Shown: piece by piece, positions 68-30,280 of the stretch
How the letters are laid out: every line of letters begins with the position of its first letter
Numbering within the stretch: the stretch's first letter is position 1
From: a virus
Lineage: Duplodnaviria; Caudoviricetes
Length of the DNA: 30,280 nucleotides
Virus record (IMG/VR): IMGVR_UViG_3300033512_000173
Coordinates: 1-30,280 of that record
Reading direction: 5' to 3' (one strand)
Made by a program: the position numbers and the translations under genes
The notes under the pieces: generated by a model
The model's database searches: none
Told to the model about the DNA's origin: nothing
The model's input: only the letters and a program-made list of their open reading frames with translations

Positions 68-505
68 ATGAAAACTGTTGAAGAATTTATGATTGAGATG
101 GACGCCTATTTTGGCGGTTTTTCAAATGACGCTGTAATTAAAGATTATGAGGAAGAGTTACAGTTCGTTTCACCTGAGGATTTAGGAGCTTTATTAAAGC
201 AAATTAAAAGAAATACACCTGTTGCATTCAAACCAGATATTAAGGCACTTTATGAGGCAATCAAAGATGCAAATATAAAAATACTTGATGAGCCACATTT
301 AGAAAAGCTTTGTCCGAGTTGTAAAAAGAGGTGGTACACATCGGGAATTTGTCCTAGCTGTTGTTATGATCCCGGGGGTAAAGATACACCAGAGGAATGG
401 CGAAAGTTTGTTCTCGATTATCGTGAGGGTAAAGTTCCTCATTTCAATGTTGCAGAAATGTTATCTTCCTTGTGTAAAAACAAACAAGCGGGAGTCGTTT
501 TGTGA
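68..505 (+). CDS. Zn-ribbon protein, putative replication accessory (helicase loader/inhibitor-like); paralog of 2820..3251
   Basis: GGAGG RBS; CPSC...GICPSCCYDP motif; aligns without gaps to 2820..3251. Confidence 0.75.
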   Translation: MKTVEEFMIEMDAYFGGFSNDAVIKDYEEELQFVSPEDLGALLKQIKRNTPVAFKPDIKALYEAIKDANIKILDEPHLEKLCPSCKKRWYTSGICPSCCYDPGGKDTPEEWRKFVLDYREGKVPHFNVAEMLSSLCKNKQAGVVL

Positions 506-717
506 AAAGTGATATAGAAATGCATGCCATAAATTATCGAGATGGAACTAGCGAAAGAAATTGTCAGCGTTGTGTTTATATAAAAATAAAATTGGCTACT
601 GGGTTGCAATGTTGTTATTACGATCTTCCAACCAGTATTGGGAAATGGTGTAGCTTGGGATTATTACCGTTAAAGCAGGAAGGTTGCGTACCAATAGCGC
701 AGGGCGAGTTGTTTTAG
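502..717 (+). CDS. Small Cys-rich hypothetical protein
   Basis: GTGA overlap with the upstream stop; CxxC, CC and further Cys residues; C-terminal QGELF resembles a sliding-clamp-binding QxxLF motif. Confidence 0.6.
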   Translation: MKSDIEMHAINYRDGTSERNCQRCVYIKIKLATGLQCCYYDLPTSIGKWCSLGLLPLKQEGCVPIAQGELF

Positions 718-720
718 GGA

Positions 721-788
721 TCTTAGACTGAACAGTGATGCAGTTGTTAGATGGATTCTTTAGCCGTAAAACAAGTTTTACGGACACG
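721..788 (+). repeat. 68-bp dispersed repeat, copy 1 (cassette upstream site + leader hairpin)
   Basis: 52/68 identical without gaps to 30116..30183; hairpin CCGTAAAAC-AA-GTTTTACGG at 764..783. Confidence 0.9.
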
Positions 789-1065
789 AACTAAACCAAG
801 GAGAAAGAAAATGGAAAAGAGATTAGCGAACCTCAAGGAATTGCTGGCGGTACAAGGTTGCGATGGTAATTGGAACTATGACCAGTACATGAGAGGTATG
901 TATAACGGGATGGAATTGGCTGTTGCTGTTTTAGAGGGACGGAATCCTGTTTATCGGGATGCCCCCAAAAAGTCATTTACTAAATGGTTTAAGCGTACTT
1001 TCCATAAGCCACATCTAACAACTGCTTCAACGTCGACAAGCTAACGCTTGCGAGTTAAGCAAATG
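747..1065 (+). mobile_element. Integron-type gene cassette (single ORF + attC)
   Basis: Begins G|TTAGATG (746..753), the exact complement of CATCTAAC (1012..1019); ends with an attC at G|TTAATC (1065). Confidence 0.8.
811..1044 (+). CDS. Cassette-borne hypothetical protein (77 aa, GNWNYDQYMRGMYNG motif)
   Basis: AGGAG RBS at 799..803 favours ATG 811 over 751. The tail HLTTASTSTS is encoded by the attC left arm and the stop lies in the attC loop. Confidence 0.8.
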   Translation: MEKRLANLKELLAVQGCDGNWNYDQYMRGMYNGMELAVAVLEGRNPVYRDAPKKSFTKWFKRTFHKPHLTTASTSTS

Positions 1066-1071
1066 TTAATC
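1013..1071 (+). other. attC: attC recombination site (59-base element)
   Basis: R'' ATCTAAC, 5-nt spacer, L'' CTTCAACG with extra C, CAAGC/GCTTG stem with TAAC loop, L' AGTTAAG, 5-nt spacer, R' GTTAATC. Confidence 0.85.
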
Positions 1072-1965: not shown

Positions 1966-2823
1966 ATGGCAAAAATTGATATCTGGATGCCTATTTACAT
2001 AGGCGATTATCTAGGCGATACAATAGAATTATCAGCCGAAGAACATGGGGCATATTTACTTTTGTTAATGCATTATTGGATTAAAAAGGGTGAAATTGGA
2101 TGCGACATTGAAAGACTTTCAAGGGTTTGCAAGTCAGATATTAAAACCTGTAGCTTTATTCTAGGTTATTACTTTACCCTAGATAACGGTAAATATAAAA
2201 ATAAGAGAGCTGATATAGAAATGGTAAATGCAGAAAAAAGACGCTTAATATCCTCTGTAAACGGTAAAAAAGGGGGAAGACCTGCCAAAAATAACCTGCA
2301 AGAAAGCTATGGGTTATCTTCCGGGTTATGTGCAGGTAACCTGCAAGAAAGCTCTTCATCTTCATCTTCATCTTCATCTTTACCAACAACAACACCTTTA
2401 AAACCAGTAAGAGAGGAATCGCTCACTCATGAAAATCCAGTAACCTTAAATGATGGGAGCAAGAGACTTTCAAAAGCTCAAGGGGCATGGAACTATGCAC
2501 AGTTAAAACCAGCTTCAAGAATAATGCCGGTTCAATTCAAGCCGGATGATCTTTCGGGATGCCTTGCGGTTTTACAGGTATATACTGACACAGAGATTCA
2601 AGACGCTATCACAAACTATGCAGAAATTAAGAACAGCCCTGATTATGAAATAGGGTTTGAATACGGTTCTTTTCAAGGATTTATGAAAAGCGGTGTTGAG
2701 AAGTTTATAAAAGACTCTGACCCCTGGGATAAATTCAGGAAAGAAGTTGCTCAAAACATCCCTAAAACCGATGTTTACCAGTTTAATCCAAACGATTTTG
2801 ACGAAGAAGGGAATCTAAAATGA
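1966..2823 (+). CDS. Phage replication initiator, YdaU/DUF1376-like
   Basis: N-terminal WMPIYIGDYLGDT..LSAEEHGAYLLLLMHYW and NGKKGGRP motifs; Ser-rich linker; GGAG RBS supports ATG 1966. Confidence 0.8.
   Translation: MAKIDIWMPIYIGDYLGDTIELSAEEHGAYLLLLMHYWIKKGEIGCDIERLSRVCKSDIKTCSFILGYYFTLDNGKYKNKRADIEMVNAEKRRLISSVNGKKGGRPAKNNLQESYGLSSGLCAGNLQESSSSSSSSSSLPTTTPLKPVREESLTHENPVTLNDGSKRLSKAQGAWNYAQLKPASRIMPVQFKPDDLSGCLAVLQVYTDTEIQDAITNYAEIKNSPDYEIGFEYGSFQGFMKSGVEKFIKDSDPWDKFRKEVAQNIPKTDVYQFNPNDFDEEGNLK
2292..2379. repeat. Iteron-like repeats inside the initiator gene (putative origin)
   Basis: TAACCTGCAAGAAAGCT at 2292 and 2337; inverted GGGTTA half-sites at 2311 and 2323; palindrome TGCAGGT-A-ACCTGCA 2331..2345; then (TCTTCA)n. 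Confidence 0.6.
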
Positions 2824-3251
2824 AAACAGTACTAGACTTTATGACAGCCTTAAATGACTATTTTGATGGGTTAAAGAACAAGACCGTTTCAAGCCTGATT
2901 ATGCAAGAACTGGCATATATTAAGCCCTCTGATCTTGATAAACTGTTTAGACAGCTTATAATTTCACAGCCTGCAAGCTGGAAGCCGGATCTTAAAGCCA
3001 TAATTGAATCAATCAAGGCAGCAAAGATTATACCGCTTCAAGAGCCTGGACAAGAAGAAGCTTGCCCTGTATGCAATGAAGTCAATCATAGTTCTGGAAT
3101 ATGCCGAAACTGTTGCTATGACCCTTCAAGAGATGGCACTCCAGAGCAATATCAAAAATGGTGGACAGACTGGAAAGCAGGGATTGAACCTCACTACGAC
3201 ATAAAAGACGTTCTTTCAGGGATTGAACGGAAAATTAAAATACAGGTTTGA
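2820..3251 (+). CDS. Zn-ribbon replication accessory protein; paralog of 68..505
   Basis: ATGA overlap with the initiator; CPVC...GICRNCCYDP. Confidence 0.75.
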   Translation: MKTVLDFMTALNDYFDGLKNKTVSSLIMQELAYIKPSDLDKLFRQLIISQPASWKPDLKAIIESIKAAKIIPLQEPGQEEACPVCNEVNHSSGICRNCCYDPSRDGTPEQYQKWWTDWKAGIEPHYDIKDVLSGIERKIKIQV

Positions 3252-3276
3252 CAATGTATAAAAACAGTGGTATGTT
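3248..3276 (+). promoter_or_regulatory. Sigma70-type promoter for the packaging operon
   Basis: TTGACA-17-TATGTT with extended TG; ATG follows 6 nt later. Confidence 0.7.
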
Positions 3277-3282
3277 AATAAC

Positions 3283-3795
3283 ATGGTAACAAAGAAAGCA
3301 CCGGTTAAAAAGGTAGTGGCAAAGAAAAAGGCTCCAGTTAAGCCGAAATACGACAAGGCAGGTCAACCTACCAAGTATAGGCAAGAGATGTGTTTAAAAG
3401 CCTATGAGCTTGCTTCACAGGGCTTTTATGATGCCATTATTGCAAAAGAATTAGGAATTAATGCAGATACCTTATATGCTTTTAAGAAAGATCACAAGGA
3501 ATTTTCCGAGTCCATCAGGCTAGGGAAGGAAGTTGCAGACAATAAAGTTGAGTTGACTTTGTACGAAATGGCACTTGGTCACAGCCATGTAGTAAAAAAA
3601 CCGATGGTAGTAGGTGACGGTTTAGGGGAATCTCATGTTGAAATTGTTGAGTATACCGAAAAATTACCGCCAAACATGCATGCTATTGTTTTTCACCTCA
3701 AGAACAGAAAGCCGAAAGAATGGCGTGACAAACAAGAAATTACGCAAGAAACGACACTCGAGATCAAACACACGTTTGATCCAAAGGGGATTTAA
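3283..3795 (+). CDS. terS: Terminase small subunit
   Basis: GQPTKY motif, HTH (IAKELGINADTLY), HKEFSESIRLGK and FHLKNRKPKEWRDK, typical of HTH-type TerS. Confidence 0.85.
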   Translation: MVTKKAPVKKVVAKKKAPVKPKYDKAGQPTKYRQEMCLKAYELASQGFYDAIIAKELGINADTLYAFKKDHKEFSESIRLGKEVADNKVELTLYEMALGHSHVVKKPMVVGDGLGESHVEIVEYTEKLPPNMHAIVFHLKNRKPKEWRDKQEITQETTLEIKHTFDPKGI

Positions 3796-16206: not shown

Positions 16207-17772
16207 ATGGCAAATGATTATAATTTAGACTTTTCTAAAATGGACTTCAGAGGGGATGCTTTTAAAAATGCATTTGCAAAAGGTTTTGCCCAAACTCCTG
16301 CGGGGTCAGCTAATCCAATGGCAGGTTTTACAGGTACAGGGTTAGTAGGTGGACCACAGTCAGCAGGGGGGACAAACGCCGCTGCAAACACAAGTGGTAG
16401 TTCTAAAGTCTCAGAAGGACCAGCCCCTATTATGGGAACAGTAAACGCTCCAGCGGCGGTAACGATGGGAACCGTAGCACCACAAAGAACAGTAACGAGG
16501 GGGACGGTTGAAAAAGCCGCCGATCCTACTTTGGGAACAGCAACTTTAAAAGAGACAACTTACGATAAACCCACATATAATGCCGTCAATCCTAATCAAC
16601 CAATGTCTGAGCAACAGCAACAGGCAGTAAAAGGGGCGGCGGCTAATAGAGACGCTTACGACGCATACACAAGGCAAGCTCTAGGATCAAGCGTAGAAGA
16701 TACCATGAGTAAAGCAGGGGCGGCGGCGGCTCAACAGGCTCAAGGCGTTTCCGATCAGGCAGTACAGCAAGCTATAAAAGCCGCTAAGTCATCCGGTGCA
16801 ATGGGTGGTAAAGCCGCTCTAGCTGCCACTGGTACGGCGGCGGGAGCTTATGGGGCGGCTCAAGATGCGGCAAGAAAGGAATATTTCAACACCGCTCAAC
16901 TAGGGGCAACTTTAGGAGCCGAAAACGCTGGACGATTACAGAAAGCAGCGGATGACCAGACTCAGAGATATGGCATAGACGTTGGAGCCAACACTCAAAG
17001 ATATGGAACAGACGTGGGGGCGGCGGCTCAAAAATACAGCTCAGAATTAAGCGCAAACCAACAGAAATACGGCGTTGATGCAAGTACAGAAATGGATAGA
17101 TATAAAGCCATATTAGCAGGTAATCAACAGCGATATGACACAGATGTTGGAGCTGCAACCTCAAGATATGGTACAGACGTTGGCGCCGAACAATCCCGAT
17201 ACAATACCGATGCGGGTTTAGCTTCCTCAAAGTATAATACAGACGTAGGGGCGGGTACTTCCAGATATAACACAGAGGCAGGGCTAGCGGCACAAACTTA
17301 TAATACCGATGTAGGGTCAAGAGATCAACGCTATGGGGTTAATGTAGGTAATGCAGTATCTCAAGAACAGCTTGCTAACGAACGGCGAGGGCAAGATTTA
17401 GGGCTAGTCAGTCAGGGAATAGGGGCAGCGGGCGGTGTTTTTGGAGCTTTAGCAATGTCAGACAGAAACCAGAAAACCGACATAAAGCAAGAAAAAATGA
17501 CAAAGGGTTTAGACTCTTTGCGCTCATTCTCATATAAATATAAAAAAGGTCCAGCTTATGAGGGCGGACGTAAAGAAGCCGGAGTTATGGCTCAAGACCT
17601 TGAAAAAACAGCCATGAAGCCCGCCGTGGTTCAAACTCCAATAGGCAAGATGATTGACACTAAAAAGCTTGCTACGATGAACACAGGGGCGTTATCAGAA
17701 CATGAGAACCGCTTAAAAGCAGTAGAAAAAGCCCTTTCATACTTAGGGACGATGAAAAAAGGAGCTAAATAA
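16207..17772 (+). CDS. Virion protein with 11-aa repeats and a C-terminal peptidase S74-like intramolecular chaperone
   Basis: Ala/Gly/Gln-rich; SDRNQKTDIK, SYKYK, GVMAQDLEK and a terminal coiled coil form the S74 signature. Confidence 0.75.
   Translation: MANDYNLDFSKMDFRGDAFKNAFAKGFAQTPAGSANPMAGFTGTGLVGGPQSAGGTNAAANTSGSSKVSEGPAPIMGTVNAPAAVTMGTVAPQRTVTRGTVEKAADPTLGTATLKETTYDKPTYNAVNPNQPMSEQQQQAVKGAAANRDAYDAYTRQALGSSVEDTMSKAGAAAAQQAQGVSDQAVQQAIKAAKSSGAMGGKAALAATGTAAGAYGAAQDAARKEYFNTAQLGATLGAENAGRLQKAADDQTQRYGIDVGANTQRYGTDVGAAAQKYSSELSANQQKYGVDASTEMDRYKAILAGNQQRYDTDVGAATSRYGTDVGAEQSRYNTDAGLASSKYNTDVGAGTSRYNTEAGLAAQTYNTDVGSRDQRYGVNVGNAVSQEQLANERRGQDLGLVSQGIGAAGGVFGALAMSDRNQKTDIKQEKMTKGLDSLRSFSYKYKKGPAYEGGRKEAGVMAQDLEKTAMKPAVVQTPIGKMIDTKKLATMNTGALSEHENRLKAVEKALSYLGTMKKGAK
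16963..17358 (+). repeat. Twelve tandem 33-bp (11-aa) degenerate repeats, consensus xRYxTDVGAxx
   Basis: QRYGIDVGANT, QRYGTDVGAAA ... SRYGTDVGAEQ ... QRYGVNVGNAV. Confidence 0.9.
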
Positions 17773-18571: not shown

Positions 18572-20658
18572 TGGCGTTTAACTGGGAAGATGTAAAAGCG
18601 GGCGGACTTGGTGCGATTGACGAAGCTCTTTTCGGTTTGCCAGAGTATGCACTAAAAAAGCTTGGTAAGCGTCAAGAGGTTGAAGATTATATAAAAAAGA
18701 ACGAAAAAGCATATAGAACAGGTGAAACCGTTGGAACTATTGGCAGTATGTTTATTCCAATACCAGGTGCAGGGGCGGTAAAAGCTGGCACGATGGCGGC
18801 AAAGGGATTAAAAGCAGCGAAAGCCGCCGATACTGTTACTGATCTGGCACGACTGGCAAAAGGGGCGGATACTGTTTCGGATGTTGGACGGCTTATAAAA
18901 GGCGTTGACACAGCGGCGGATATAGGGAAAGCCGCCGATACTGGAATAAAACTTAAAAAAAACATAGATTTTAGCAAACTTGCGACAAGGGGCGCTCTTG
19001 CAGGCGGTGCAGAATCCGGTGTCAGGGGAATAACTTCTGAAAAAACGCCAGCCGAAATACTCAAAGATATACAGACAGGTGCGTTATTTGGAGCCGGGGG
19101 AGGTGTAGTTGGCGGTGTTTTAGGCAATAACCTTAAAAGGTATGCCTCAGAAGCTGCAGAAGGTGCGGAAAAGGCTTATTTAGGTACAACCGATCTGGTT
19201 AGAAAGCAAGCTCTTGCACACTTAAAAGATGTTGCAGGAGCAGGAGCGAAAGGGTTTGGCAAATTAAGCGTTGCGGATAAAGCCAGAAGGGAACTTGTAA
19301 GGGTAGGAAAAGAAATAGGCGCACATATTCCCGGTAAAATGGACGAAGCTATATTTGAAAATAAAAAAATGTGGAAAGCCCTTGATGATGTAGTTGAAAA
19401 CGCTATGCCTAATGTCAGAGGGTCGGAAATATATTCAGAGGCTTTAAACAAGTTGGACATGGACGCTTTATATGCTCAGTTTCCAAAGGCAGAGGTAGAC
19501 GGCTTTCTAAAACAAGTATTAGTTGACGGTGTAGACCGTTCAGGGCTTGCGAATTCAAGGGCTTTTCTTAGTGATCTAATTGACGCCGCAAATAATAAAA
19601 GCACAATAAAAAGCGGTAAAGATGCAGCCACACAGCGGATGCAAAAAGAAATTGCAAAAAGCTTAAAAACAGGCGTTGACGAAATTGTCATGGATACCGC
19701 AGAAAAAGCTGGGTTAAACATAGACTTTAATAAACTTAAAAAAGATTATTTACCAATGAGAGCCTTTGCAGAATCTGGGGCTATTGATTCCATAGTTCCA
19801 ACTAAAACCTTTCTGGGTTCTCCAACTATGGAAAAACTGGCAATGTCAGGGGCGGGAAGTGCTTTAGGCTTTTCTCAAGGGGACGATCTTGAAACAAGGC
19901 TTAAAAATGCCGCTATTGGCGGGGTCGGTGGGTTTGCAGTTAAAAAAGGACTCGAAAAACTTATAACAAAAGGAATCGCCTCTACAGCCCCGCTTGCCGG
20001 ACTTGCAAGCGATGCCCTTGAAAAGATCGCTCCAGAAGTACTTGAAAAGGCAGGGGCAACGATTGGCGGGCAAGCCGGCTCTGTTATATCCAGAAAAGTA
20101 CTTGATGAAGTTCAACCAGAGACACCAAAGGAAGCAGAGGCAGCAGAAACAGCCGCCGTATCAGATAATGAACCGGTTTATTTAAGCCGTGTTCTGCAAA
20201 AAATGCAGGATTACGCTATTGCAAACGGCGTTGACCCTGAAAGTCAAGAATTTCAAGACTTTGCCGGTCAAGTTTATTCAGCGACAGGCGGTTTTGACCC
20301 TGAGAAAATCGGCTCAATTCTCTATACAGACCCCGGCGAGCAAGCTTCATATCTGAAAGCCCTGCAAGTTTCAAAAGGTTTGAGGGAAGTAATGCCAACA
20401 GCAACAGCTAAAAAAGCCGGATTATTTGACAAAGCAACAGCCGAGGAAGATCTGGCAAGAGGTACGGCAATTGACAAGCTTTCTGCTTTAGTTGGAGACG
20501 TTGCAAAAGAAGCGGGAACAGAGGCTTATGCTAAAAAAGCTCTGACAAAGATACTCAATTCAAATGATGATCCCGAACGAAAAGCACAACTTGTCAAGAC
20601 GTTGCTTTCTGGGTATGGTGTAGACATAGACGAGCTGGAAAGCATGGGAGTTGTATAA
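18571..20658 (+). CDS. Probable internal virion (DNA ejection) protein
   Basis: 695 aa, Ala/Gly-rich with glycine-zipper hydrophobic segments; short 13-aa repeats (KAADTVTDLARLA / KGADTVSDVGRLI). Confidence 0.6.
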   Translation: MAFNWEDVKAGGLGAIDEALFGLPEYALKKLGKRQEVEDYIKKNEKAYRTGETVGTIGSMFIPIPGAGAVKAGTMAAKGLKAAKAADTVTDLARLAKGADTVSDVGRLIKGVDTAADIGKAADTGIKLKKNIDFSKLATRGALAGGAESGVRGITSEKTPAEILKDIQTGALFGAGGGVVGGVLGNNLKRYASEAAEGAEKAYLGTTDLVRKQALAHLKDVAGAGAKGFGKLSVADKARRELVRVGKEIGAHIPGKMDEAIFENKKMWKALDDVVENAMPNVRGSEIYSEALNKLDMDALYAQFPKAEVDGFLKQVLVDGVDRSGLANSRAFLSDLIDAANNKSTIKSGKDAATQRMQKEIAKSLKTGVDEIVMDTAEKAGLNIDFNKLKKDYLPMRAFAESGAIDSIVPTKTFLGSPTMEKLAMSGAGSALGFSQGDDLETRLKNAAIGGVGGFAVKKGLEKLITKGIASTAPLAGLASDALEKIAPEVLEKAGATIGGQAGSVISRKVLDEVQPETPKEAEAAETAAVSDNEPVYLSRVLQKMQDYAIANGVDPESQEFQDFAGQVYSATGGFDPEKIGSILYTDPGEQASYLKALQVSKGLREVMPTATAKKAGLFDKATAEEDLARGTAIDKLSALVGDVAKEAGTEAYAKKALTKILNSNDDPERKAQLVKTLLSGYGVDIDELESMGVV

Positions 20659-29803: not shown

Positions 29804-29995
29804 ATGACATATAACGAAATTATACAAGAATTGTATCATGGTAAAGCGATTACAAAGAAAAGAGCGGGCGATATAGCAGAAGAAATTGACGTTGAAACGG
29901 CGAGAATTTCTTTTAGAATTAACAAGATGATTGACGCTTTGGGATCGGTTTTGTTTGAACAAGGGTGGTTTTTTGATGAAAAAACAGATGCTTAA
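29804..29995 (+). CDS. Hypothetical protein
   Basis: GAGG RBS; 63-aa ORF. Confidence 0.6.
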   Translation: MTYNEIIQELYHGKAITKKRAGDIAEEIDVETARISFRINKMIDALGSVLFEQGWFFDEKTDA

Positions 29996-30113
29996 TATTA
30001 TTTATACATGGTTTGTGTCTCATGCCGATACTTATTTTTCTCTAGTTTACACGTTAGGAATGTTGGCAACTGCTAGCTTTTTAATATGGGTAATAAGCTG
30101 GATACTTGAGTAG
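29988..30113 (+). CDS. 41-aa membrane peptide
   Basis: Start overlaps the upstream stop; hydrophobic C-terminal half. Confidence 0.5.
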   Translation: MLNIIYTWFVSHADTYFSLVYTLGMLATASFLIWVISWILE

Positions 30114-30115
30114 GT

Positions 30116-30183
30116 TCTTATACGGAACAAGCTAATATTTGTTGGATGGACGCTTTAGCCGTATAACTAGTTATACGGACACG
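30116..30183 (+). repeat. 68-bp dispersed repeat, copy 2
   Basis: Matches 721..788; G|TTGGATG at 30141; hairpin CCGTATAAC-TA-GTTATACGG at 30159..30178. Confidence 0.9.
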
Positions 30184-30216
30184 CGCCAAGATGCGGGCGA
30201 GTTTTCAGGAGGAAAT

Positions 30217-30280
30217 ATGAACGAATGGATTAGCGTAAAAGAACGATTACCACAAAAACCAACTTTTGACTGGGTTTTGG
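30217..30280 (+). CDS. DUF551-like protein (partial)
   Basis: AGGAGG RBS; MNEWISVKERLP N-terminal signature. Confidence 0.7.
   Translation, partial: MNEWISVKERLPQKPTFDWVL

Follow-up and report, generated by a model that had tools for sequence, protein, structure and literature searches.

A conserved palindromic site and a hairpin leader at the head of integron-type gene cassettes in phages

The question raised by this DNA, a 30,280-bp viral contig that was analysed whole and is referred to here as the window, is why one 68-nt sequence should be found twice, at 721..788 and 30116..30183, each time in front of a different gene. The answer proposed here is that the 68-mer is two elements joined: a phage-resident site of about 25 bp, likely to be an attI-like pad for a host integron integrase (IntI) acting in trans, and a leader, predicted to fold on the bottom strand, that opens the cassette docked there. 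We give this reading a probability of about 0.6. The recurrent phage cassette system itself is real, and its cassettes are canonical.

Two copies of a repeat and the cassettes behind them

The two copies align without gaps, 52 of 68 positions being identical, or 37 of 43 when counted from the GTT, as in the preliminary description. The second-best ungapped 68-mer match on both strands of the window reaches 35 of 68 (mean 17.7, sd 3.6). It is likewise the case, as described there, that the repeats start 3 and 2 nt past TAG stop codons (the stops ending at 717 and 30113), that both carry G|TTRGATGGA, at 746 and 30141, and that both are followed by a purine-rich ribosome-binding stretch, an ATG (811 and 30217) and a small gene. 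These genes differ, encoding a hypothetical protein behind copy A and a DUF551-like protein, recognised by a weak Pfam match, behind copy B. The leader was also considered as protein-coding, which was rejected, copy B having an in-frame stop.

Homology to other phages starts exactly at G|TT, and the left part is therefore regarded as phage-resident and the right part as the 5' end of a cassette. The earlier proposal of a common 5' leader before unrelated genes holds for the part from G|TT, but not for the 68-mer as a single leader. In loci L001/L002 and L019 a leader nearly identical to that of copy A precedes different genes, each closed by a CATCTAAC attC. The B-type leader is present in eight further loci, where it follows immediately on an attC or else on a motif resembling the first 25 nt of the 68-mer. 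Such recurrence in other phage records supports the suggestion of integron-type cassettes with a common landing mechanism. It had been reasoned that the suggestion would fall if the DUF551-like gene had no attC behind it, or if homologous motifs always preceded the same gene with no attC; the homologues carry many different genes, mostly with an attC.

On the plus strand, a phage ORF of 71 aa without a family match (502..717) ends in a TAG 5 nt before the palindrome of landing site A. This site (723..746) is degenerate, with the left box TTAGACTGA, an altered right box, a 5-nt spacer and the crossover at G746|TT, and scores 7.0 bits, second of 1,193 GTT positions, with a matrix made from 33 other sites. 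The cassette leader (747..792) comprises the remainder of R', GA at +8/+9, an outer stem (756-758 with 788-790) and an inner hairpin (764-783). The gene behind it (811..1044, plus strand) encodes a hypothetical protein of 77 aa matching phrog_23796, and reads into an attC at 1013..1071 on the same strand, with R'' at 1013-1019, L'' at 1025-1032 including the extra base, L' at 1053-1059 and the crossover at G1065|TT. With its R''-L''-L'-R' inverted repeats, AAC/GTT and an extrahelical base, this is a canonical attC by our own pattern. Cassette A is complete, extending over 747..1065, and its 5' end is complementary to R'' at 8 of 8 positions. The attC is 86.8% identical over 53 nt to the third attC of Tetrasphaera phage TJE1, the only INPHARED phage with a clear match to it, and its type presumably resembles that of spirochaete sites. 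In run X1, a short contig matches the window attC and right after the GTT enters another leader.

Two further observations concern this region. The right half of site A (733-754) matches the bottom strand of its own attC (1012-1033), the two forming a perfect inverted repeat of 14 nt that spans the crossover; the site looks as though it had received a copy of part of an inverted attC. A promoter-like motif, TTGACC-17-TACTGT, recognised by eye at 1073-1101 and absent from the promoter scan, begins just past the R' box of the attC.

Cassette B is similarly placed. A hydrophobic phage ORF of 41 aa (29988..30113, plus strand) has a TAG that ends 4 nt before the palindrome of landing site B (30118..30141, plus strand), which consists of TTA-N12-TAA, a 5-nt spacer and the crossover G30141|TT. 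With the same matrix from 33 other sites it scores 23.4 bits, first of 60,506 window positions, the runner-up having 11.4. The leader (30142..30187, plus strand) has its outer stem at 30151-30153 with 30183-30185 and its inner hairpin at 30159-30178; the outer stem is CGC/GCG here and TTC/GAA in leader A, making the window copies a compensatory pair. The gene (30217..30280, plus strand) is cut by the contig end after 21 codons, and the 21 readable residues match phrog_924 (E 8.5e-5) and, weakly, DUF551 (Pfam E 0.0021, 19.3 bits against a cut-off of 22 bits). The attC predicted to follow this gene would lie beyond that end. Within the contigs from three runs, one of which contained a small share of the window's words, none extends past 30280 and no joints were seen; the window has no terminal redundancy. 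Among 12 other contexts with the copy B leader start, an attC half lies downstream in 9 and in 3 there is none, a count biased by four loci that were fetched via the attC motif. Five of these 9 are exactly CATCCAAC, while 4 have a variant R''. In one of the homologous loci (L184) the copy B leader opens an attC-bounded gene that is identical to the window gene start at 11 of 13 positions and ends in CATCCAAC, and the orf1 cassette of TJE1 has the same layout as cassette B and the same ending.

Elsewhere, the window genes include a terminase, a RecT-like gene and DUF1376. Paralogous ORFs (41% identical, E 2e-40) are found at 68-505 and 2820-3251, the second of them behind the DUF1376 replication gene, and a replication module may thus have been duplicated. 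Two intergenic stretches, at 1085-1200 and 1815-1955, before an HTH gene and the DUF1376 gene, are structured, have hairpin-like ends that resemble each other and no Rfam match, and are reminiscent of c4-type antisense regions. Coding repeats are present at 16963-17186 and 18817-18963 in two predicted structural genes.

The site at array heads and the cassette cargo

Across phages, 33 sites give a consensus of about 25 bp in which TTAKRCNGA is followed by its inverted copy, 5 nt and G|TT (TTA-N12-TAA-N5-G|TT). The 9-bp box thus appears three times, as a direct copy, an inverted copy and a third completed by the cassette across G|TT. The direct box, at -23, is by its sequence a candidate integrase box. 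A leader-bearing 5' end was matched to 38 of 67 first attC sites (37 distinct), and none to the other 29. The palindrome precedes 22 of the 37 distinct array heads, as against 32 of 8,560 background GTT, with exact TTA and TAA ends in 19 of the 22; 5 of the 15 heads without it are behind attC tails that our own pattern had missed. The position expected of an attI, heading the array with its crossover at G|TT, is occupied at these 22 of 37 heads and at both window sites. Scanning with the site motif alone returned 21 loci. The leader test was passed by 13, and 12, of which 5 are in previously unseen records, have an attC or half of one downstream; one chance family accounts for 5 loci, and 1 locus is too short.

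An apparently empty site (5 loci), antisense within a small gene of a T4-like phage, was taken as chance, and the loci and run contigs examined contain neither an empty site nor an excised circle or a joint. In L001 (2955-2988) the head site is a variant whose spacer to G|TT is longer, and there are shifted palindromes in L194 and L211.

No integron integrase (TIGR02249) was found in 78 distinct phage records, which are mostly fragments and include 9 of at least 90% completeness as well as the complete genome of TJE1; a host IntI acting in trans is therefore inferred. There is no integrase family among the 43 ORFs of the window, a partial contig. It fits the definition of a CALIN, attC without a neighbouring intI, with one complete attC, and the arrangement of a complete integron, intI adjacent to attI, was absent from the records scanned. 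Nor is any gene common to all 12 genomes compared; neither a phage-encoded recombinase nor a shared helper gene was found. Because the array-bearing phages have no universal gene in common, the system is not limited to one phage family, as had been supposed. The host side was searched with the attC motif in 51 Omnitrophota, 401 Actinomycetota and 401 Acidobacteriota genomes, with 0 hits and no host integrase or attI. No named phage is close to the window by its terminase, whose relatives do not cover the cassette regions, and a plasmid search returned nothing useful.

The cargo was scanned in 77 representative ORFs (78 were chosen and one left out). There are PHROGs matches for 23, including six DNA methyltransferases, Mom, Lar-like proteins, RtcB and a kinase-like ATPase, and several of the cassette genes are predicted to counter bacterial defences.

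The alternative that survives best, although it is unlikely, is that the arrays are passively captured pieces of host chromosomal integrons, a host attI with its first cassettes, taken up by illegitimate recombination; passive capture is what Qi et al. proposed for phage CALINs (PMC9892861). The site may simply be the attI of a host integron not seen in the three phyla searched, and decay is evident in many arrays. Conservation, however, ends about 30 nt left of the crossover, and two sites per record are present not just in the window but in four other records (G005, G006, G007 and G031). The cargo also appears phage-like, given the 23 PHROGs matches and the absence of any toxin-antitoxin or acetyltransferase Pfam family among the 77 ORFs, and the leader palindrome variant that was scanned has no true match in GTDB genomes, where 8 chance loci were returned. 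Docking by a host IntI at a site that belongs to the phage is preferred.

The hairpin leader and a proposed reusable chassis

The leader is laid out as G|TT-N5-GA, an outer stem of 3 bp next to a bulged A, then an internal loop and the inner hairpin. In 82 loci from 73 records, fetched by the attC motif alone, a structure test finds it in 65 of 73 distinct cassettes with attC on both sides, compared with 46 of 1,204 random GTT, and it is also behind 37 of 64 terminal attC sites. R' matches R'' at 7 of 7 positions in 55 of the 73 internal cassettes. The outer stem covaries (CGC/GCG 21, CAA/TTG 18, TTC/GAA 15, TTG/CAA 12, and others) and pairs completely in 50 of 71 contexts, where shuffling gives a mean of 9.9 and a maximum of 19; the inner stem is detected in 115 of 144 candidates.

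The inner GTT of the leader as a second crossover fits 1 of 155 cases and was not adopted, and likenesses to group II intron domain V, nut-sites, retrons and operators were dropped, loop lengths varying widely and there being no Rfam match. Scanning metagenomes for the leader palindrome alone returned 120 loci, mostly chance matches, with one true context (L019/L125). The single junction at an inner GTT is at 4016-4040 of L242, where an attC runs straight into the right half of a leader, which may reflect a secondary crossover or slippage. The attC P12002L_attC2 of a Polaribacter phage (PMC9892861, Table S3) contains a minimal TAAAAC-AA-GTTTTA hairpin that resembles the inner stem of leader A, and given this hairpin the leader may derive from an attC L box.

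Among 70 distinct inner stems the mismatches are solely A-C on the top strand, hence G-T on the bottom, in 45 and solely G-T in 4, although the sequences are related, so that these and the other counts are not independent events, and strand-biased mutation could also yield an A-C excess. In predicted folds, G-T pairs on the top and bottom strands number 51 and 239 in leaders, 34 and 108 in attC, and 41 and 30 in terminator-like controls. A bias of this kind, as in attC, would suggest folding of the bottom strand, which is the strand recombined by IntI (PMC4792948). For the two leaders of the window itself, folding is equal on the two strands.

This bias bears on a second, improbable alternative, that the leader is a sense-strand RNA element controlling translation, processing or antitermination and that the palindrome is a terminator or operator. 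Such a role would account for the position of the leader directly before the ribosome-binding site, and the TJE1 copy of the site is annotated as a putative terminator in the phage record and called a predicted terminator in PMC9892861. The arms of the site show covariation, in 113 of 200 pairs as compared with 78 after shuffling (the set has 50 pattern hits, about ten of them probably chance), and have a slight top-strand excess of G-T, 16 against 8. The leader mismatches favour the other strand, however, no Rfam covariance model matches the window at E up to 1, and the palindrome is at a constant distance from G|TT with a consensus that has no U-tract.

Sequence comparison also suggests how the cassettes, each a leader opening a docked gene under the preferred reading, were assembled. 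Among the 94 distinct cassettes we count 82 ORF clusters and 58 leader types. As many as 7 unrelated ORFs stand behind a single leader type, and the A type of the window is found before 6 others. Where cassettes with the same leader have unrelated ORFs, the 3-6 nt before R'' are alike (0.61 against 0.36 permuted, maximum 0.48), a similarity which fades by about -7 to -10, and there is little similarity past the start codon. This is read as a swapping of ORFs into an existing chassis of leader and attC. The attC bodies follow leader type weakly (0.816 against 0.764, maximum 0.844), and a target-site duplication around the ORF is unsupported (3.95 against 3.72, maximum 3.97). All attC calls were made with our own pattern and not with IntegronFinder; the pattern also recovers the TJE1 sites, and in its strict form, giving 4 hits in 1.38 Mb of simulated DNA, it replaced a looser finder with 10-22 null hits per 30 kb. 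Near a cassette array in L205, at about 3237-3500, there is a long tandem repeat of 18 bp that is degenerate.

Proposed docking by a host integrase and comparison with known systems

On the preferred reading, an excised single-stranded cassette circle would recombine via its attC into the phage site, and new genes would enter the phage operon just behind the upstream stop codon. The docked genes would be expressed from phage promoters with the ribosome-binding site of the cassette; a sigma70-like promoter is found upstream of 5 of 32 sites, against 52 of 1,300 in the background, and promoter scans of the window are near chance level. More speculatively, the leader hairpin would adjoin the attC in the circle and rebuild another copy of the box, and the leader could be an accessory element for binding or folding. 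Leader and attC together would form a reusable chassis into which different ORFs were swapped.

It is likely that dozens of related viruses borrow a host integron recombinase to dock and shuffle small genes. If so, phages are active users of integrons and not passive carriers, gaining and reordering anti-restriction genes through a host enzyme. The 25-bp site is carried by the cultured phage TJE1, which has validated attC sites, and would be testable in a standard conjugation assay. The common leader and pre-R'' bases in unrelated genes are, in addition, a lead on the open question of cassette genesis. A fuller account, in which diverse phages of one host group have integrase-less docking sites, hijack the host IntI and carry cassettes built by ORF swaps into the leader-plus-attC chassis, the leader aiding recombination as a second hairpin on the bottom strand, is possible but distinctly more tentative. 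Were this cassette economy true, it would be a counter-defence mirror of the defence integrons of bacteria and a visible route of cassette genesis.

A dif-like site, acted on by XerC/D of the host or by some other tyrosine recombinase than IntI, is very doubtful. The spacing TAA-N6-TT equals the 6-bp spacer of dif, but the right arm of the site varies with the cassette, unlike the XerD arm, and the partners are canonical attC with the extra base in L''. PF00589 is matched in 2 of 25 records and in 0 of 11 among those at least 90% complete. Although attG sites have been compared to dif (10.1101/2022.09.11.507474), TJE1 attC1 and attC2 recombine with attI1 by IntI1, as reported in PMC9892861. 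It is just as hard to credit that the site is what remains, without function, of a cassette that collapsed through loss of its interior and attC, leaving R' followed by R''. The left arm does look like the start of a cassette and the right arm like an R'' box, but 33 distinct sites share the 18+5 geometry with covarying arms of different types, and the left arm equals the start of the docked cassette in just 3 of 50 pattern hits.

The preferred attI-like pad can be compared directly with known attI. Both attI1, with its spacing TAA-N7-TT, and the Shewanella attI share with the phage site a position at the array head, crossover at G|TT and an inverted box of the L type; the direct box upstream is, in the phage site, a candidate counterpart by sequence. 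The phage site differs in having no adjacent intI, apparently seldom a promoter of its own, and one direct box that abuts the L box, forming an 18-bp palindrome. It is about 25 bp, whereas attI is about 65 bp (PMC4792948), and at TAA-N6-TT is one base shorter than the TAA-N7-TT of the Shewanella attI as given in PMC9892861. The L'-R' spacer of the phage attC is likewise one base shorter than that of aadA7. The site is attI-like by position, but it departs from attI in lacking an adjacent intI and in its spacing.

Phage attC arrays are already published, Qi et al. (2023) having reported 17 phage CALINs (PMC9892861). The TJE1 CALIN is like the window in having the same site, leader and attC family and no intI; its first cassette opens with the leader start of the window, carries a gene judged by eye to be DUF551-like, and has R'' CATCCAAC, and the leader is on all three of its cassettes. 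The accessible text of that paper has neither the leader nor a conserved site, whereas here the site heads many arrays and is found twice per genome in several phages. Literature searches, in which subscription journals were thinly covered, returned no description of either.

There is also a partial likeness to attG, an integrase-less target with a central cut, whose hotspot motif is CRGM at +6..+9 with a GWT core (10.1101/2022.09.11.507474). At these positions 94 phage cassette starts have NNGM in 92, and hence GM at +8/+9, YRGM in 60 and the strict CRGM in 32. The attG sites are sporadic genomic sequences, whereas the phage site, as a module, is conserved, found again in one phage after another, and placed before arrays of several cassettes. 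Sedentary integrons, described as libraries of anti-phage defence (10.1101/2024.07.02.601686), are likewise cassette arrays with conflict-related cargo; the arrays described here are in phages, and their recognisable cargo (methyltransferases, Mom and Lar) is that of counter-defence.
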